Positions 4,157 through 54,895 of a DNA stretch of 58,606 nt are shown piece by piece; position 1 is the stretch's first letter, and every line of letters begins with the position of its first letter. The DNA is taken from the IMG/VR virus record IMGVR_UViG_3300031992_000010; one strand, 5' to 3'. The notes beneath the pieces were generated by a model. It was not told the origin of the DNA. It saw only the letters and a program-made list of their open reading frames with translations, and did no database searches. This DNA comes from a virus (Duplodnaviria; Heunggongvirae; Uroviricota; Caudoviricetes). A program made the translations under genes and the position numbers.

Positions 4157-4393
4157 TTAGGAAAATTTAATACCGTTTTGTGTTAGTATTTCCGATGAAA
4201 TAATATTTTTTGAGAATAAACAAATACGTTTGCCATCCTTATAAACTGCATAATTGTTTTTTGGTGTAAGTTTTACCTCTATTGAATTTGGATCATCAAC
4301 ACCATAAACCTTCAACATGGCGGCAAATTGCCTGTATTGGCGTTCATCGTTGGAAATATTATTTTCCATTAGTGTATTAAATAGGTTTTTCAT
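4157..4393 (-). CDS. hypothetical protein with CTS-like leader (MKNLFNTLME-N)
   Basis: 78-aa ORF overlapping the ndk stop by 4 nt. Confidence 0.7.
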   Translation of the reverse strand: MKNLFNTLMENNISNDERQYRQFAAMLKVYGVDDPNSIEVKLTPKNNYAVYKDGKRICLFSKNIISSEILTQNGIKFS

Positions 4394-4791
4394 TTTAAAT
4401 AAATATTTTTTTCTATTATTTTTCTATTTTTTGAATCACTTGAATGCATAACATTCCTCATATCATCCTTACCATATTTTTCCCTGATTTTATCCTTGAA
4501 TGCACCCACATCAATTCCGTGGACGTTTATGCATTCAAAACCGGTTGAAGGACCTGATGTCATATAATCACAAAGATCCTTGTAGAAGTCCTCATCCTTG
4601 TGTGGAAAATAGAACTTTTCCGCCTCCTCCATATTAAGTGTTTTTGTGTTCCATTTAACCGGCATAAGACCTACGGACCGCATTTCATTCAATAATATAG
4701 GTGTAAGTTGAAGGAAACCGGGTTTGATCATTATAAACTCGGTCGATTGTTTTTTGATTCCTTCCAATATGAGGTTATGTAAATGTTTCAT
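4390..4791 (-). CDS. ndk: nucleoside diphosphate kinase
   Basis: FIMIKP, EAEKFY..HK...FYKDL.DYMTSGP, IREKYG and RNVMHSSDS (catalytic His) match NDK motifs. Confidence 0.9.
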   Translation of the reverse strand: MKHLHNLILEGIKKQSTEFIMIKPGFLQLTPILLNEMRSVGLMPVKWNTKTLNMEEAEKFYFPHKDEDFYKDLCDYMTSGPSTGFECINVHGIDVGAFKDKIREKYGKDDMRNVMHSSDSKNRKIIEKNIYLK

Positions 4792-21440: not shown

Positions 21441-21502
21441 TTAAATTTTTTCCGGATTCATTATATATTAATATGTAAGTTAAATTTAAAGGATATAGGA
21501 GG
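21441..21502 (+). promoter_or_regulatory. 62-nt promoter plus leader cassette (TTAAAT-N17-TATATT...AAAGGATATAGGAGG)
   Basis: 61 of 62 nt identical to 50852-50913. Confidence 0.85.
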
Positions 21503-33165: not shown

Positions 33166-34596
33166 TTATATAGTTTTTTTGTATTTTTGATATAATAAAG
33201 TTATTTCGGTAAATTTTTCCATAACATATTCATCCGGTTTTCTTATAAATGATTCCGTTGGATATATATTGGATAAAAATTCCTTAATTATTTTTACATT
33301 CTCCTTATAATTGGCATTCAGATATTCACCATTATTTTCGAGGAATGGATTAATCGTTGTTTCAATACCTTTTGATGCACCCTCAACCGCGCTAAATAAC
33401 ATTTCCGGATTTCTCCAACGGTTGACCTCCTCAAGCATCAAATATACATCGTCATTAAGCAATACCTCATACATTTCCTCGCTCGATTTGTACATATTGT
33501 TTGCCATTAAGGATTCACTATATACATCCAAAAGGTCGCTCAAAATATCCATTAATTCCTCATTGGATTTCATAAAAGGTATGATTTTCTTGGTAACTAT
33601 ATGTGTTACCATGGCCGGTGTCATATTAAACTCGGCGGCAATATCCTTTCCCTTTTCCTGCTTTTCCCCACCAAGTCCGAAATATTTAAGGAATACAATC
33701 ACATCACGTTTAGAAAAATGTTTACCTAACTCATCAAATAAACGGTTCCATTTTTCCTGTTGTTCGGTGGCGCTTATTTTATCGGTAACACCAAGTGATG
33801 CCTGATGGTCCTGTGCATAGTCATCATCCTTACCCATAATACCATCAAGTGATTTCGTTAAATGTGTTGTCTCACCCTTTGTGTATGCATTTCGACGATC
33901 ATTATAACTCATTCGGATTGTGCGTGAGTTATTATATATTTCGGATAGAATGGAGTAGCGGATCATATATGAGGCATATTGTTTAAATGAGGTTGTTCTT
34001 GCCTTTTCGGCGCCTTCCCTGTCCTCCTTATCCTCAACATCATTTGCCTGTACCGGTTTCTTATATGTATTTATTGCCTTTGTCAATCCCTCAAATCCGG
34101 CACTTATAAGTTCCGCCTTATCGAGGTTTTCCTTTCCAATAAATTGATTTACAATCTTATACACCAACTGACCATATTGTTTTACAACGGCCGTACGTCC
34201 ACGCTCGGAATCAAGATCCATCGTCAGGTCATCCATGGCCAATTTTCCGGCCTCCAACTCGGCACGTTCGGCCTTTGACATTTTCATTGGTAATAAACGT
34301 ATGTTTGTACCCAACGATGCAAGAATGGATTTAAGTTCCTGTAAATCCTGAATATTTAGGTTTAATTCGGCGGCCAATTGTTTTAGACGGGAATTATTTG
34401 CGGCCACAATATCATCGACCACAATGTCGCTCGTAATATTATATTTTTGTAATAAATATAATGCCTTTTGTACATCCTCCGGTAGTTTACGGGACATTTT
34501 CTTTGCATAATCCGCTATCTCGTGGGATAATAACGTAACACCATCGGTGCTCGTTCTCATTCTACCTTCGGAAATTATATTGGTGAGTTGTTTCAT
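33166..34596 (-). CDS. phage-encoded sigma-70 family (RpoD-like) sigma factor with N- and C-terminal extensions
   Basis: Region 2: LVYKIV..F...AELISAGFEGLTKAINTY...SFKQYASYMIRYSI...SRTIRM. Region 4 HTH: RDVIVFLKYFGLGG...KDIAAEFNMTPAMVTHI. Confidence 0.85.
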   Translation of the reverse strand: MKQLTNIISEGRMRTSTDGVTLLSHEIADYAKKMSRKLPEDVQKALYLLQKYNITSDIVVDDIVAANNSRLKQLAAELNLNIQDLQELKSILASLGTNIRLLPMKMSKAERAELEAGKLAMDDLTMDLDSERGRTAVVKQYGQLVYKIVNQFIGKENLDKAELISAGFEGLTKAINTYKKPVQANDVEDKEDREGAEKARTTSFKQYASYMIRYSILSEIYNNSRTIRMSYNDRRNAYTKGETTHLTKSLDGIMGKDDDYAQDHQASLGVTDKISATEQQEKWNRLFDELGKHFSKRDVIVFLKYFGLGGEKQEKGKDIAAEFNMTPAMVTHIVTKKIIPFMKSNEELMDILSDLLDVYSESLMANNMYKSSEEMYEVLLNDDVYLMLEEVNRWRNPEMLFSAVEGASKGIETTINPFLENNGEYLNANYKENVKIIKEFLSNIYPTESFIRKPDEYVMEKFTEITLLYQKYKKTI

Positions 34597-47124: not shown

Positions 47125-48966
47125 ATGGCTGAACAAACTGATGGAGTAAGTGGAAAATACGTACAACCCGAAGGCTATATGGAGGTTCGTACCCAACAAC
47201 CGGGTACATCCTTAAATGAGGCCGCCGTGGATCCAATGAATATCCCGGGGTTTAGAAAAACCACAAACTTCCACCCAAATTATGCCGGTAGTGAACCAAA
47301 GAAAAAGAAGAAACGTCTAATCAACCAATTTTTCTCCGACCTATCACGTTGGGGTATGAATTATGAGGAGGACGTAATCAAAAATATGCAGGCCATACCT
47401 GCGGATAAAAACCTTATACCTAAACAAAACCAATTATTGATGCAGGATTTGTTTGCAAACAATAATTGGAAGGTAAAAACCAATAGGGATAGAAGTTTTT
47501 ATGAAAAGGATTTCGCCTCGAAACGTGAGGTTCTCCGTAACCTTGCATTGCAGCCGGAATTGGAGGATATTTTGGATACACTTGCAAACGAGGCCGTTGT
47601 TTATGACTCCAATTATACATATTTTATCGAGCCATATATCGATGAAAATGAAACGAAGGAATTGGATAAAAAGGCCAACGAGGAACTCCGCAAAAATATG
47701 TCCGACTGGTTTGCCAAATTATATAAAATGTTGGAGTGGAAAACGAAGGCTTGGGATGATTTCAAACGATTTGCCGTGGAGGGTGAACTTGCGTGGGAAA
47801 TTGTTTATGACAATGTGACAAATCCAACTAAAATTATTGGCCTCGTTCCACTTGATACCGCCACGCTGACGCGTACATTTAAGAATGGCAAGTGGTATTA
47901 TATTCAATTCAAGGGTGTTATGGGTAAGGAACGCGAATTATTGGATTCCCGTGTGGTGTTTATCCAATATCAGGAAACCAATTGTATTTCACGTATGTCA
48001 TACCTGGAACGATTGGTTCGCCCATTTAATATTTATCGTATTATTGAGCAGGCCCAAATTATTTGGACCGTATCCAACGCACAAAGCAAAATGATGTTTA
48101 CCATTCCTACAAATGGTATGTCACAGGCGGAGAGTGCCATGACTGTTGCCTCCATGATGAATAGATATCGCGAGGTAATCAAATTCAAACAGGAATCCGG
48201 TGAGTTGGAAATTAACGGTCAATCAAATATTCCGGGAAATAAGGAATATTGGGTTGCATCAAATGAGGCCGGTGAACCTCAAATTGAAACCATAGCGGGT
48301 GAAGGACCTGAATTGAATGATAATGACCAATTGAAATACTTTTATAACCGTCTTATAAAGGCCTCAAAAATTCCGCTTGATCGTTTTGACGCGGAATCAG
48401 GTACAACATGGTTTGGCACCGATGGTTCGAGTGTGGCACGTGCCGAGATTTCATTCTCCCGTTTTGTGGATAGGATGCGTAATACATTCGTTCAGGCCAT
48501 ATTGAAGCCACTTCAAATCCAAATGATGCTATTGCAGCCGGAATTGAAGGAATATCTTGATATTGTAAATTCAATCTCAATCCACTTTAATTCATACAAT
48601 CCTTTTGAGGAAATGCTTGAAATGGAGATGACCCAAAAACGTGTGGAATTTATCCAAACAATGAAGGAATCGTTGGTGGATATGGATGCGGAAGGAAATG
48701 ATGTCAAATTCTTCTCAAGTGAGTTTTTGGTTAAGAAATATTTACATTACTCGGATGCCGACATTGCCCTTAATAAACGAATGAAGCAGAAGGAGGATGT
48801 GGAAATGGGTCTTGCCGGTGGTGAGAACGCCGACGAACAACTTGAATCCACGGACGAACAACTTGCAAATCTTCTTGAACAGGTTGAAAAACGTAAATCC
48901 GAACTAAAGGAGGAGATAAAGAAAAGAAAAAAGAAAACCAAACCTAAAAAGGACGAGGAGGAATAA
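47125..48966 (+). CDS. gp20: portal protein (T4 gp20-like)
   Basis: LALQPELEDILD..ANEAV, F..EGELAWE, SYLERL.RPFN..RIIE and LIKASKIPLDRF. Confidence 0.9.
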   Translation: MAEQTDGVSGKYVQPEGYMEVRTQQPGTSLNEAAVDPMNIPGFRKTTNFHPNYAGSEPKKKKKRLINQFFSDLSRWGMNYEEDVIKNMQAIPADKNLIPKQNQLLMQDLFANNNWKVKTNRDRSFYEKDFASKREVLRNLALQPELEDILDTLANEAVVYDSNYTYFIEPYIDENETKELDKKANEELRKNMSDWFAKLYKMLEWKTKAWDDFKRFAVEGELAWEIVYDNVTNPTKIIGLVPLDTATLTRTFKNGKWYYIQFKGVMGKERELLDSRVVFIQYQETNCISRMSYLERLVRPFNIYRIIEQAQIIWTVSNAQSKMMFTIPTNGMSQAESAMTVASMMNRYREVIKFKQESGELEINGQSNIPGNKEYWVASNEAGEPQIETIAGEGPELNDNDQLKYFYNRLIKASKIPLDRFDAESGTTWFGTDGSSVARAEISFSRFVDRMRNTFVQAILKPLQIQMMLLQPELKEYLDIVNSISIHFNSYNPFEEMLEMEMTQKRVEFIQTMKESLVDMDAEGNDVKFFSSEFLVKKYLHYSDADIALNKRMKQKEDVEMGLAGGENADEQLESTDEQLANLLEQVEKRKSELKEEIKKRKKKTKPKKDEEE

Positions 48967-49013: not shown

Positions 49014-49035
49014 AATTATTGAAATAATATTGGAA

Positions 49036-50709
49036 ATGGACATAACATATTTATTGCAACAACCAAGGACAAGATGTAAGGAGGTTCATATAAGCAAATG
49101 GTTCCCACAGGATTACAACGAAATACTTAAACAACCCGGTACAAAATTTACGGAGAAATTATACCAATATATGTATAATAATCCGGAACATATATGTCCT
49201 GTATGTGGTAAACAAACCCCATTTCAAAATTTTATTTCCGGTTATTCCAAATATTGTAGTGTTAAATGTAGTGCCAACGATGAGGAATGTACAAAATTAA
49301 AAAAGGAAACCATATTGGAAAAATATGGTGTTGACAATATATCCAAATTGGAATCCATCAAACAGGTAAAAAAGGATATAATGAATGAACGGTATGGCGG
49401 CTTTTACAATAACAGGGATAAGGCAAGGAAAACAATGTTGGAAAAATATGGTGTTGACAATATATCCAAATTGGAATCCATCAAACAGGTAAAAAAGGAT
49501 ATAATGAATGAACGGTATGGCGGCTTTTATAACAATAGGGATAAGGCAACGAAAACAATGCTGGAAAAATATGGTATAAAAAGCACGTTGGCCTTGCCGG
49601 AGGTTAGACAAAAGGCATTGGAAACCAAAAGAAAACGGTTTCTTGACATAAATGATGATATAATTGATTATGATGGTGATTTGTGGATAATGAAATGTCC
49701 ACACCCGGAATGTCAAAAATGTAAGGAAAAAACATTTAAAACACCACAAGGTATATATCACGATAGAAAACGTGACGGGTATGAATTATGTACAAATATA
49801 TTACCAATACAGGATATCCGGGTATCAAATACATCGATCGAAATTTTTGTTAAACAAATTTTGGATGAATATGGTATTAAATATGAGGAAAATGTAAGAA
49901 ATATAATTCCACCAAAGGAGTTGGATATTTATATTCCCGATATGCATATTGCGTTTGAATGTAACGGGTGTTATTGGCATAGTGATTTTAGGGATCACCG
50001 GCCAAAACGTCATTATGAAAAATATAAATTATGCCGGGATAAAGGGATTCAATTAATTACAATTTGGGAGGATTGGACCTATAATAAATCGGATATTTTA
50101 AAATCCATTATAAAAACAAAATTGGGTTTAATTGAAAATAAAATTTACGCAAGGAAATGTGAATTGGTGGATATATCAAACCAAAAAACATTGGTAAATA
50201 ATTTCCTTGATGTAAACCATATACAAGGCCATACCGTTTTTGAAAAATGTATTGGTGCCTATTATTGTGGTGAGTTGGCCGCCGTGATGACCTTTGGACA
50301 TAAACGGGGATGTCGTGGGGGTGCCGGTAAGGTATCAAATGAATGGGAATTAAGTAGGTTTTGTACAAAAATGGATGTGATTATTCCCGGCATTGCAAGC
50401 AGGTTATTGAAAAAATTCGAATATGAATTTAAACCGGAAATAATATATTCATTTTCATCCAACGATATTAGTTCCGGTAATTTATATAAAATACTTGGAT
50501 TTGAGGAGGAACAAACAACGATTCCATATTGGTACATTGAACCCAAAACATTAAAACGTTACCATAGAACGGCATTTACAAAAAGGGAGATGATACGGAA
50601 ACAAATGGCATCCGACTCGGATAATTTTACGGAATCCGAAATAATGAAAAAATATCATTTTTATAAGATTTATGATTCCGGAATGACCAGGTGGGAAAAA
50701 CATCCTTGA
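49036..50709 (+). mobile_element. free-standing Hef-like homing endonuclease gene, copy 3
   Basis: Same architecture as copy 1 (KELDIYIP..AFECNGCYWH and YKIYDSG.TRW); downstream of the portal. Confidence 0.7.
49317..49563 (+). repeat. 123-nt near-perfect tandem duplication (41 aa)
   Basis: EKYGVDNISKLESIKQVKKDIMNERYGGFYNNRDKA occurs twice, starting at 49318 and 49441. Confidence 0.95.
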
Positions 50710-50851: not shown

Positions 50852-50913
50852 TTAAATTTTTTCCGGATTCTTTATATATTAATATGTAAGTTAAATTTAA
50901 AGGATATAGGAGG
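50852..50913 (+). promoter_or_regulatory. 62-nt promoter plus leader cassette
   Basis: 61 of 62 nt identical to 21441-21502. Confidence 0.85.
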
Positions 50914-50921
50914 ACAAGGAT

Positions 50922-51227
50922 ATGAAAGCAAGTGTATATAATGGTGATAGTGTAACATATAGAATCAAGGTAAATGATAGAATTGCCGATAAATCGAGAT
51001 TCCCTTGGGGGCGTAGTGAAATGTTCTATGGCGGTTTAACCGAGGATGTCATTGAGGACTATGGATGCTTTAAATATGTAAAAATTTGGGCCTGCCGAAG
51101 TTCGAGGAAAACATTGCGTACACTTATTTATGAGTGCCGGAATGGTAAATGGTTCGGATATGATGGTAAGGAGAAGTTTGAGACCACAAAGGAGGAAATT
51201 ATCAGGGCACACAAACCGCTTTTATGA
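50922..51227 (+). CDS. small hypothetical protein
   Basis: Has its own promoter cassette and terminator. Confidence 0.8.
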   Translation: MKASVYNGDSVTYRIKVNDRIADKSRFPWGRSEMFYGGLTEDVIEDYGCFKYVKIWACRSSRKTLRTLIYECRNGKWFGYDGKEKFETTKEEIIRAHKPLL

Positions 51228-51259: not shown

Positions 51260-51292
51260 AAAAAACCATAAGTTATTGACTTATGGTTTTTT
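51260..51292. terminator. bidirectional terminator
   Basis: AAAAAACCATAAGT-TATTG-ACTTATGGTTTTTT. Confidence 0.85.
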
Positions 51293-51303
51293 GTTATCCT
51301 ATA

Positions 51304-52293
51304 TTAACCCCATAATGTGTGGTATATGTTAAAGACACCTTTTTCCTTATTACGGACTTCGAAAGGCCCATAAAATTTATTGTCATAATCCGAATAATAA
51401 TACAATTCCTTTGGTACCTCATCGGTAAATCCAATCATCGGGACAAGGTTCCCGTCATTCAGTTCCTTCTTTGTATAAATATATCCGGAATTTGCCTTTA
51501 CCGATGGCATATCACCACTACGGGTGGCAAACCCAAATAGTGCATCGCGGATGGTATCACCTTTCAATTCCGTCCCTTCCGGTCCAAAATTGTATTTATC
51601 GTATATTTCATTCAGTTCCTTTTCATTGGTGACATTGAACTCATTTAGGTCAATCCATTTAACCTGCCAATGGGTTGTGTGATAATTGCCGAGAATTAAA
51701 TAACGATGCATCAGGATTTCCTCTATCCAGGCATTTGTTTGTTGTAATCTATTGTTATGCTCGGTTTGGGCCTTCCAAAATTTCTCCCTCATTGCCGTTA
51801 TCCTACCATCAAGGTTAACAGGCAGTTTTTTCCCACCATTTAACTTCATAAGGGTGTCGTACAATTTGGTAAGTAACTTGTTTTTGGCGTCATCATCCGT
51901 TTTGATTCGCCATATATTTGTGGTGATGGCATCCACGGCGGCCGTTATCCAAAATAAGGTCTCACCCGGTGCCACTTCGGCAAAGCCGCGTTTTTTTACA
52001 AATTTTACCCCATCATCGATGATGAATTTTGCGAGTTTCCATATATTGGAAGTTGTCGCATCCTTACGTACCTCCGAGTAAAGTTTATTATATTGGCTCA
52101 ATACCTTCGGATCGTTATTGTCCAGCCACCCCCGGAGATTATTTTCGGCCTCATCGTCAATACCCCCATATAGGTCGTATTGTTTTGAAATTTGCAACAA
52201 TTTTTGTACCCCCTGTTTATCAACCGGAAGATTTTCCATTTCCCGGTCAAAATCAAAGAAACTTGCCTCGACTATATTTATTAGATGTTTCAT
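51304..52293 (-). CDS. hypothetical protein with CTS-like leader (MKHLINIVE-A)
   Basis: 329-aa ORF at the end of the minus-strand cluster. Confidence 0.75.
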   Translation of the reverse strand: MKHLINIVEASFFDFDREMENLPVDKQGVQKLLQISKQYDLYGGIDDEAENNLRGWLDNNDPKVLSQYNKLYSEVRKDATTSNIWKLAKFIIDDGVKFVKKRGFAEVAPGETLFWITAAVDAITTNIWRIKTDDDAKNKLLTKLYDTLMKLNGGKKLPVNLDGRITAMREKFWKAQTEHNNRLQQTNAWIEEILMHRYLILGNYHTTHWQVKWIDLNEFNVTNEKELNEIYDKYNFGPEGTELKGDTIRDALFGFATRSGDMPSVKANSGYIYTKKELNDGNLVPMIGFTDEVPKELYYYSDYDNKFYGPFEVRNKEKGVFNIYHTLWG

Positions 52294-52344
52294 ATTTTCC
52301 TCTATTTTTTAAAACAATTATTTTTTGCAAATTTCCCATATTTA

Positions 52345-52392
52345 TTATATTCGTAATAAGGATTCGTTGATTCTTTGGTTCAAATGTTTCAT
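52345..52392 (-). other. 15-codon mini-ORF MKHLNQRINESLLRI (leader-only peptide or gene remnant)
   Basis: Hand-translated. It fills the gap between two leader-bearing genes. Confidence 0.5.
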
Positions 52393-52402
52393 AGTTCCAA
52401 TT

Positions 52403-52684
52403 TTATTTTAATCTTTTGACTTGTTCCTCAACCCATTCGTTTGGATACTGTTTTATGTCCTCAATATCAAAATACATTAATTCACCCAAATATGAAAAAT
52501 CTTTGGGAAGAGATTTGGATTTATTATCATAATCCATATATTTTTTACGTTTCCAAACTTGGACCATATATTGATTTCCGTGTTTAACCTCAACGAATTT
52601 ATACATACCATCGGACAAGCCCTTTATTACAACTTTACCATTATGTGGTTTTGATTCTAACATAATTTCATTCAAATGTCTCAT
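52403..52684 (-). CDS. hypothetical protein with CTS-like leader (MRHLNEIMLE-S)
   Basis: 93-aa ORF in the cluster. Confidence 0.75.
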   Translation of the reverse strand: MRHLNEIMLESKPHNGKVVIKGLSDGMYKFVEVKHGNQYMVQVWKRKKYMDYDNKSKSLPKDFSYLGELMYFDIEDIKQYPNEWVEEQVKRLK

Positions 52685-52686
52685 AT

Positions 52687-53109
52687 TTATATGTTTTTAT
52701 TTCTTATCATTAATCTTACGGTACAAACACCATACCGGGGTGCACTAAAATGCATCAAATATTGTTTACCGGTTTTTGGGTCATAATGTCCACACGCGGT
52801 GGATGGAGTCCACTTTGCGATTGCATTCAAATTTTTCCTTATACCGGGATGACCGGCATACATTGTACCAAATATAGGTTCATACAAACTATCCAGGGTG
52901 CACCATACCCGGTCAAACATATCGACCACCCAAGGTTTTTTCTCTATGTTCACCCTAAACTCATAGTAACCAAGAGGGTAGTCCTTGTCGTCCTTCTTGG
53001 AATATGAGAAATATTTCTCCACCTGCGAAATAAGTACCTCCCAACTTTTGGTAATTGTATCCGTGTCCGTGAGTTTAGGTGCCGATATGGATTCGTATAA
53101 ATGCCTCAT
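52687..53109 (-). CDS. hypothetical protein with CTS-like leader (MRHLYE-S)
   Basis: 140-aa ORF in the cluster. Confidence 0.75.
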   Translation of the reverse strand: MRHLYESISAPKLTDTDTITKSWEVLISQVEKYFSYSKKDDKDYPLGYYEFRVNIEKKPWVVDMFDRVWCTLDSLYEPIFGTMYAGHPGIRKNLNAIAKWTPSTACGHYDPKTGKQYLMHFSAPRYGVCTVRLMIRNKNI

Positions 53110-53172
53110 ATTTATGTGTTTTTTCGATTACATTTTCCTTATTTTCAATATTATGAATAATTATATTTTTAA

Positions 53173-53568
53173 TTACACACCAAAACCATTTTCCCAATCA
53201 TTCATAACAATATCCACCCATTTTTCTAAATCCTTGGTAATTTTAGCCGGGTAACTATATGCATCTATAAAACCTCCTGAAAAATTCCGGAACGTTTTAA
53301 TGTCATTTATATAATTAGATTGGGCTTTAATAATATCATTATTTAAATTATACTCTATCAAAATATCCACATCATATTCTTGCATCATCTCAATGGTACA
53401 ATAGAATATATTGTTTTTTATTTTAATATCTTTTATATTGTCGCATTCAAATAAATTTTTCAAAATTTGTTCTATATCATCTATAGGAAAATTTGATTTC
53501 GCTTCATTTATCAATCCTATTTCCCCATCAATTAATTCAAATAATATATTTTCACTTAAATGTTTCAT
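53173..53568 (-). CDS. AT-rich hypothetical protein with CTS-like leader (MKHLSENILFE)
   Basis: 131-aa ORF, visibly more AT-rich than its neighbours. Confidence 0.7.
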   Translation of the reverse strand: MKHLSENILFELIDGEIGLINEAKSNFPIDDIEQILKNLFECDNIKDIKIKNNIFYCTIEMMQEYDVDILIEYNLNNDIIKAQSNYINDIKTFRNFSGGFIDAYSYPAKITKDLEKWVDIVMNDWENGFGV

Positions 53569-53578
53569 ATCATTTTGC

Positions 53579-54076
53579 TTATTTTCCTAAATAACCTTGT
53601 GATTTCCAACCTGTTATTATTTGTTTTAATGTGGCCGTTGCGTAATGTCGGCGATAAAATGATAGACGTTTGCCATATTGATCGTATAGTCTATCCAATT
53701 CGGATTTTTTAATGGTTGCCGAATATACAAATAATTCATATTTTGGGGGCTCCCCTATGGAACCGGCATATGAGTATTTGAGTGATACCTTACCCAAATC
53801 CTTCCATTTTTGCTTACCTATAATTTTCTCAATATCCTTAATCGATCTCCATTCCTGACCATCATTAAAGCGTATACCTCCATTGGCACACATATAACCC
53901 TTATCGTCCTCGGGGGACCAAATAAGACATGCCCTGTTTCTTCCGGTGGTAAGGTCAAGGTTACTATCGATATAATCATTTGTTTCCAATGCAATTACCT
54001 TTACCTCATCATTATTGACCATTGGCCGGGTTAGGCCTCCAAGTGCCTCCATTATTTTATTTTTGAGTGTTTCCAT
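53579..54076 (-). CDS. hypothetical protein with CTS-like leader (METLKNKIME-A)
   Basis: 165-aa ORF downstream of a minus-strand promoter. Confidence 0.75.
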   Translation of the reverse strand: METLKNKIMEALGGLTRPMVNNDEVKVIALETNDYIDSNLDLTTGRNRACLIWSPEDDKGYMCANGGIRFNDGQEWRSIKDIEKIIGKQKWKDLGKVSLKYSYAGSIGEPPKYELFVYSATIKKSELDRLYDQYGKRLSFYRRHYATATLKQIITGWKSQGYLGK

Positions 54077-54122
54077 ATTTTATATTTCCTTTTTTTATAA
54101 ATGGATTATCCCAGTTGATTGT

Positions 54123-54151
54123 AATATATAGGGAAATACCAAAAAATTTAA
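54123..54151 (-). promoter_or_regulatory. TTAAAT-N17-TATATT promoter-like site on the minus strand
   Basis: The plus strand reads AATATA-N17-ATTTAA. Confidence 0.7.
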
Positions 54152-54159
54152 GGTAATAA

Positions 54160-54834
54160 TTATAAATTTTTCACATCCGTATCGCAAACAAATGATTTTG
54201 CCTGAATATTGGCCTTCATAGCGTAATATTTTGTGATTTTTCCCGGATTTCCGGTACATTTAAAGGTACCATCTATTTTGGCACATCCAATCAGGCCGTC
54301 AATGCCTTCAATGCCACAATCGCAAACATTATATACGCCGCCCAATTCATCGGTGCCGCAAATTGTTTTTGGTCCCTCCTTCAATGATGTCAATCTTGGA
54401 TTATGATGTGCTATGAATTGTACACAACATTTTGGTGCTCCGGTTAAGGCCGTCAAATTATTATTTGAACAATTATACACATCCACAACAAGCGGTCCGC
54501 CACGTAATGTTCTTAATGCCGGATTATTTGCACAATTAAATGCATTGCATTCCTCCGGACAGCCACGTAATACCTTCAAGTCATTATTACTTATATCAAA
54601 ATTACCTGCTATATATTTGAATTGGATAAATGATGGGAATGACGATAATCCCTTTCCGGATAAATCCACATCACCATCAACGTTGATTGTCATATCGCCA
54701 TTAATGCGGTAGTTTTTTAATCCCATTTTCTTACACCAACCAACAATTTTTAGATATGTATCATTACCCTCTATATTAAGTGGTGTATTACCAATATGTT
54801 TTTGTTCGGTTATAAAATTATAAAGATGTTCCAT
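54160..54834 (-). CDS. LRR-like repeat protein with CTS-like leader (MEHLYNFITE-Q)
   Basis: About 22-aa repeats: F.C.NN.L..L.G.P. Confidence 0.65.
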   Translation of the reverse strand: MEHLYNFITEQKHIGNTPLNIEGNDTYLKIVGWCKKMGLKNYRINGDMTINVDGDVDLSGKGLSSFPSFIQFKYIAGNFDISNNDLKVLRGCPEECNAFNCANNPALRTLRGGPLVVDVYNCSNNNLTALTGAPKCCVQFIAHHNPRLTSLKEGPKTICGTDELGGVYNVCDCGIEGIDGLIGCAKIDGTFKCTGNPGKITKYYAMKANIQAKSFVCDTDVKNL

Positions 54835-54895
54835 TATATATCTTTTATTTAAATAAAAATAGGGAGTTGCCCCCCTATTTTTAGGAATTTGTTAA

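Follow-up and report, generated by a model that had tools for sequence, protein, structure and literature searches.

Between the tail sheath gene and the portal gene of a phage sequence found in sheep rumen samples lies a row of short minus-strand genes that begin with a common leader of about ten residues. The row occupies positions 51304–54834 of a 58,606-nucleotide stretch of DNA (IMG/VR virus record IMGVR_UViG_3300031992_000010; hereafter, the window). As judged from near-identical sheath proteins on contigs of 204–210 kb, the source is a T4-like jumbo myophage of about 200–210 kb; the region past the window end was read from the 64-kb contig G001 of a 99% identical phage. A sequence-only reading of the window had described the row as a contiguous, exchangeable island of six leader-tagged genes and a mini-gene, unrelated otherwise and encoding injected anti-defence effectors. 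The six open reading frames and the 15-codon mini-ORF are present, every one starting with the leader (Table 1), and they share no similarity beyond it: after a 12-residue trim, the best pairwise BLASTP match reaches an E value of 0.026 over 16 residues. The row falls into two parts: the five genes behind the promoter motif, A–E, form the island proper, whereas the first gene, encoding a leucine-rich-repeat (LRR)-like protein, is a conserved core gene. Two further leader-tagged genes, F and G, occur in relatives.

Table 1. Features of the locus, in window positions, listed from the sheath gene towards the portal gene
Feature	Position	Strand	Remarks
Tail sheath gene, 869 residues	54896-57505	-	phrog_34521, E 2.7e-86; PF17482; core; upstream anchor; without leader
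Terminator-like hairpin between sheath and LRR-like genes	54854-54883	-	z -4.25
LRR-like protein, 224 residues, leader-tagged	54160-54834	-	conserved core, outside the variable island
Phage promoter motif TTAAAT-N17-TATATT	54123-54151	-	heads the island
Cassette A, 165 residues, isoelectric point (pI) 9.2	53579-54076	-	leader with E at 10; family or fold: none found
Cassette B, 131 residues, pI 4.3, net charge -12	53173-53568	-	L-x-E at 9-11, I-x-E at 20-22
Cassette C, 140 residues, pI 9.1	52687-53109	-	missing or moved behind D in relatives
Cassette D, 93 residues, pI 9.0	52403-52684	-	leader with E at 10
Leader-only mini-ORF, 15 codons	52345-52392	-	probable scar of a deleted cassette
Cassette E, 329 residues, pI 5.8	51304-52293	-	helical N-half, beta-rich C-half
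Bidirectional terminator-like hairpin closing the island	51260-51292	.	z -6.7 and -5.9
Gene of 101 residues without leader, with opposite-strand promoter motif (50852-50880)	50852-51227	+	missing from island-empty loci
DUF7487/Vsr-like endonuclease gene	49030-50709	+	adjoins the island; 0-2 copies in relatives
Portal gene	47125-48966	+	phrog_213, E 1.2e-68; core; downstream anchor

The island exists in varying forms, and we identified eight arrangements at or of it, the window included. The site behind the LRR-like gene is empty in three lineages (sheath 97%, 73% and 60% identical) and holds the different leader-tagged gene G alone in some relatives. Other loci read A-B-D-mini-E, A-B-D-C-E or A-D-C-B-F-E, in which F is a new gene, or A-C and then two more genes, 150 and 155 residues long. 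The order G-A-B-E is found at a different site (L017), where it follows a helicase gene and a promoter-like motif of its own. Exchangeability is thus established for A–E, five of the six genes. At four-fold sites, the sheath and LRR-like genes are 55% and 49% identical to those of the relative L004, but A–E are 64–88% identical; in L015, conversely, gene A is 87% identical next to a 99% identical sheath. Island genes closer than their core neighbours in one phage and more divergent in another indicate that cassettes move between lineages.

In an alignment of 31 gene starts, the 40 nt upstream of a start codon go with the gene before it: the spacer of B is followed by C, D, F or E, that of A by B, D or C, and that of D by the mini-ORF or C. 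Comparison of the island with assembled reads from two runs, X4 and, from another study, X5, gave three clean joints; one lacks C, one places C after D, and one connects C to E by way of a 36-nt insert. The ends of these joints, six in all, lie 3–11 nt from a start codon, as do 4.6% of island positions, in a test made after the pattern was noticed. C is flanked by an imperfect direct repeat of about 25 nt surrounding its own start codon and that of D. The 36-nt insert, present in L018, L019, X4 and X5, is the 3′ tail of F behind a leader start, a deletion scar, and the mini-ORF of the window is likely to be of this kind too, probably the remnant of a deleted cassette. Two arrangements coexist in one run, at depths of 19 and 7. 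The unit of exchange is therefore a leader, its cargo and the trailing spacer, joined within shared leader codons; the route we infer is phage recombination, which in T4 operates on patches of <50 bp (PMC2839356). Just past the mini-ORF, at 52253–52339 of the minus strand, a second, decayed leader-like start follows an A-rich spacer, out of frame with E; this sequence was found only in L009 and is possibly another scar.

A DNA pattern for the leader matches five times in the window (0.06 expected), four of them within 51304–54834. All seven starts have leucine at position 4 and I/L/M-x-E within 11 residues, with L4 and E10 together in the LRR-like protein, A, D, the mini-ORF, F and G. In T4, the capsid-targeting sequence comprises ten residues, of which positions 4 and 7 direct targeting, and the gp21 protease cuts after L/I-X-E at positions 8–10 (PMC9026906). 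We selected 147 N termini across the loci analysed by positions 1–4 alone; [ILVM]8-x-E10 is found in 39 of these and in 38 of 1,228 others (odds ratio 11, P = 5e-20, a value that overstates independence, as the loci are related). The residue after it is mostly A or S. A gp21-type protease (Peptidase_S77, PF03420) and a Gp23 capsid protein (PF07068), both over cut-off, are encoded in G001, the latter with a predicted cleavage site, L-T-E|G, around residue 50. DNA polymerase, NrdD, terminase, portal, sheath, tube and the deazaguanine enzymes do not carry the leader. Taken together, these features make it probable that the leader is a capsid-targeting tag and, from its register and the presence of the protease, equally probable that A–E are packaged, cleaved and injected.

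Several observations touch on the leader and the protease from outside the island. The gp21-type protease (L134 508–1911) has 467 residues, and I/L/V-x-E sites abound in its long C-terminal part, which is scaffold-like. In the window, a sigma factor (33166–34596, minus strand; phrog_351, E 2e-18) carries the leader; it could be delivered by the virion and might read TTAAAT-N17-TATATT promoters. In a nucleoside diphosphate kinase (4390–4791, minus strand), a complete leader with E10 precedes the Pfam domain, which begins at residue 19. In a more distant phage, a 46% identical homologue of A that keeps L4 and E10 stands by itself directly before the portal gene (L132 10001–10492), and E has two remote homologues, one of them also with the leader.

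The TTAAAT-N17-TATATT site at the island head, reported by the sequence-only reading, was confirmed. This motif occurs nine times in the window (0.28 expected), among them ahead of the DNA polymerase and nrdD genes, and behind the LRR-like gene it is found only in loci carrying gene A. Within the island, spacers measure 2–63 nt, there is a single promoter motif, at the head, and the hairpins listed for the window include no terminator-like hairpins between island genes. E is the last gene wherever the array end was seen, and a sequence similar to the closing hairpin follows it at the other site in L017. The island also appears in two metatranscriptome runs, whose contigs are uninformative on transcription or its level and were not used as evidence. 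Two plus-strand copies of the motif, at 1515–1543 and 21441–21469, have no long plus-strand gene ahead and are aimed into the ends of minus-strand genes.

The LRR-like gene behaves differently. It follows the sheath gene directly, as had been noted, although a strong hairpin separates them; after this hairpin comes an AT-rich TATAAATA-like element, exact in three of eight relative loci. Whereas A–E vary to the point of absence, the LRR-like gene is found directly behind the sheath gene, 79–100% identical, in every relative with a sheath at least 60% identical (L001–L015), which refutes its exchangeability. Against L004 its protein is 84% identical at 49% four-fold-site identity, indicating that the gene is inherited vertically and is under purifying selection. 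That the protein contains leucine-rich repeats is suggested by weak matches to those of SspH1/YopM (E 0.008–0.01); relatives occur in other large phages, and given its leader it may be a fixed head protein.

A–E, F and G gave nothing significant against Pfam, PHROGs, NCBIfam and PADLOC (the best PADLOC match, with an E value of 0.0015, is not trusted). AlphaFold models are weak, with predicted local distance difference test scores of 66 for E and 59 for A; in fold searches E, its C-half barely tested by them, matched nothing beyond generic helical structures (best Z 9.1), and A gave Z ≤ 3.4, and such weak matches are no demonstration of new folds. No match was found for C, D, G and E in viral contigs, for the LRR-like gene in JGI metagenomes or, by tblastn, for A and C in GenBank phages; B had no relative in bacterial or archaeal genomes, and an Atlas feature search gave nothing at or above 0.9 for A and no usable match for C. 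That B might be a DNA mimic was considered from its net charge, and no support was found. B had also been called compositionally foreign. It does have the lowest G+C content, 25.3%, among the 52 open reading frames of the window, but about two thirds of the deficit comes from its amino acids (29.5% expected from these), the third-position G+C (GC3) deviates by only z −2.5, and we reject the composition as proof of a separate origin; E deviates equally in GC3 in the opposite direction (z +3.2).

A possible selective context is provided by neighbouring genes. TGT-like, FolE2, radical-SAM and PTPS genes lie 4–10 kb upstream of the sheath gene, implying that the phage DNA probably carries a 7-deazaguanine modification. 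Past the window end (L001 196–5786), these genes form a cluster with a ParB-like gene that is kept in relatives with 73–99% sheath identity. Published work describes defences that act on guanine-modified DNA, as well as inhibitors by which phages block a nuclease that senses modification (10.1101/2025.10.29.685425; PMC12191111). T4 Ip1–3, which have only the leader in common and are sited in hotspots (PMC12373910; PMC3012670), each block a GmrSD variant (PMC12373910). By analogy with these proteins, and helped by the 7-deazaguanine genes nearby, we regard an anti-defence role for at least one cargo as a real possibility that falls just short of probable.

We propose, with reasonable though not high confidence, that A–E are an accessory cassette array of capsid-cargo genes, an analogue of the T-even ip loci. 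The motifs present would allow a single phage promoter of early or middle type to drive a polycistronic A–E row ending at the terminator. The leader would bind the prohead core and be cut off by the gp21-type protease after I/L-x-E, and the mature cargo would be packaged and then injected together with the DNA. The shared A-rich initiation region and leader codons would act as microhomologies of 11–25 nt, recombination at which deletes, inserts and reorders whole genes, so that each new neighbour arrives in frame with a working start and a tag. The likeliest selective driver would be host defence; as the phage encodes a 7-deazaguanine pathway, enzymes directed against modified DNA are plausible agents of it; the LRR-like gene would be a tagged but fixed core gene. 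A bolder version, speculative and on balance unlikely, is that the leader DNA is also the site of recombination in an array that resembles an integron without an integrase and whose cargoes are new injected inhibitors of anti-7-deazaguanine-DNA defences; any gene captured behind leader DNA would then be immediately expressed, packaged and injected.

A number of points weigh against the capsid-cargo proposal. No functional homologue or fold was found for any cargo, and packaging, cleavage and injection are deduced from sequence. The leader glutamate stands at position 9 in E, 11 in B and 6 in C; position 7, which takes part in targeting in T4, lacks conservation in these leaders and is aromatic only in the LRR-like protein (among the 147 family leaders it is Y/F in 59). 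The leader's occurrence on the core LRR-like gene, the sigma factor and the nucleoside diphosphate kinase means that it is no marker of anti-defence function. A, C and D are basic (pI about 9), but B (pI 4.3) and E (pI 5.8) are acidic, and E, at 329 residues, is large, which sets both apart from the small basic proteins of T4. The emptiness of L002 was read at the island site only, the four-fold comparisons of B and D use small counts (16 and 21 sites), and run X4 is probably from the same sample as L009, L010 and L018 and is not independent of them.

That the proteins are packaged through the leader for host take-over or head assembly, their variation reflecting host range or drift, would suit the presence of the same leader on the sigma factor, the kinase and the core LRR-like protein, the head-assembly defects of IPIII mutants and the modification of RNA polymerase by Alt (PMC9026906), as well as the failure of family searches to find anti-defence homology. 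We nevertheless consider this somewhat unlikely: rapid gain, loss, allele swap and coexisting variants better fit frequency-dependent selection than a structural role, and all three T4 Ips proved to be inhibitors of GmrSD variants (PMC12373910). If the leader were instead a mere A/T-rich, efficient translation start spread by recombination, its proteins would be unpackaged cytoplasmic early accessory factors; the island promoter motif is indeed common to DNA polymerase and nrdD, and the first codons are both A/T-rich and the crossover sites. But I/L-x-E at positions 8–10 lies outside the 11 nt of shared DNA and is enriched 11-fold, the leader codons vary synonymously, L4 and E10 are kept in the 46% homologue of A, strongly needed enzymes lack the leader, and T-even ip genes are likewise under early promoters (PMC2839356), all of which renders an untargeted start decidedly unlikely.

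The neighbouring DUF7487/Vsr-like endonucleases might generate most of the variability through break repair and co-conversion, the leader repeats then marking repair ends. Between none and two such genes flank the island in relatives, and L002 lacks both endonucleases and island; L011, however, has an endonuclease and no island, the 5.8-kb contig with the other-site island behind the helicase gene has no such gene, and the internal reordering of C and D is left unexplained, making this improbable. Assembly mis-joins at repeated starts would also produce differing gene orders, and every joint does lie at repeats in data that are all metagenome assemblies. Yet these repeats are imperfect and short, about 11–25 nt, and the same joints recur across separate assemblies and studies, which makes mis-assembly unlikely; furthermore, rearranged copies have their own substitutions, the new genes F and G and the empty loci could not arise by mis-joining, and the B-C and C-D joints of the window are bridged in an RNA run from another study. 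We regard this last explanation as very improbable indeed.

The concept of an array of tagged capsid cargoes is already known from T-even phages. As in the T-even ip loci, unrelated cargoes have in common only a leader of about ten residues (hydrophobic 4, I/L 8, E 10), the phage itself encodes a protease of the gp21 type together with a gp23-type capsid protein that has a matching predicted site, and a hypervariable clustered locus with an early-type promoter is found in a phage with DNA-modification genes. There are also differences. Here there is one promoter per row instead of per-gene promoter elements, and joints fall at start and leader codons whereas variation in the ip loci occurs at promoter/stem-loop elements (PMC2839356). 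The cargoes reach 329 residues and are partly acidic, the tag is on core genes too, the modification pathway is that of 7-deazaguanine and not of glucosyl-hydroxymethylcytosine, and homology of the cargoes to Ip1–3 was not detected. Viewed at the level of this site, A–E are missing in three lineages. In its sequence-level features the array appears to work like a T-even ip locus; as it is known from its genes, we do not claim membership. Crossover in tag-coding DNA is a variant feature relative to the ip loci, for which it may have been described earlier.

The array also resembles the shuffling described by Arbiol et al. (2010) for T4-type phages, in which accessory genes are excised, inserted and reordered between short border repeats (there, the intergenic promoter and stem-loop elements, or PeSLs, of about 100 bp) and genes are left unbroken (PMC2839356). 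In the array, however, the repeated sequence consists of the initiation region and the leader codons, and neither promoters nor hairpins stand between genes; having a single promoter and joints free of hairpins, it does not qualify as a PeSL array. Work on END-nuclease inhibitors and on the targets of Dag glycosylases in hypermodified phages shows that modified phage DNA is exposed to defences dependent on the modification and that some of the phages encode inhibitors (PMC12191111; 10.1101/2025.10.29.685425), but no sequence link to the cargoes was found and these systems are a candidate target class only. Should the leader be a signal for capsid targeting, injected proteins of uncultured gut jumbo phages could be recognized by it simply from sequence, and the variable tagged proteins would be the best candidates for new counter-defence factors; the breakpoints offer a concrete route for the turnover of such arrays, recombination inside tag-coding DNA.

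Related features occur elsewhere in these phages. DUF7487/Vsr-like endonuclease genes (window 49030–50709; L001 1524–3116; L009 16363–19757) are variably present at several core-gene borders in near-identical phages. A second cluster of about seven leader-tagged genes, with only faint Pfam hints, lies upstream of tail-tube-like and capsid genes (L136 246–8223). In the aquatic relatives L074, L078 and L079, the tail tube gene is followed by series of genes whose products share their first ten residues, which suggests a similar array built on a different leader.

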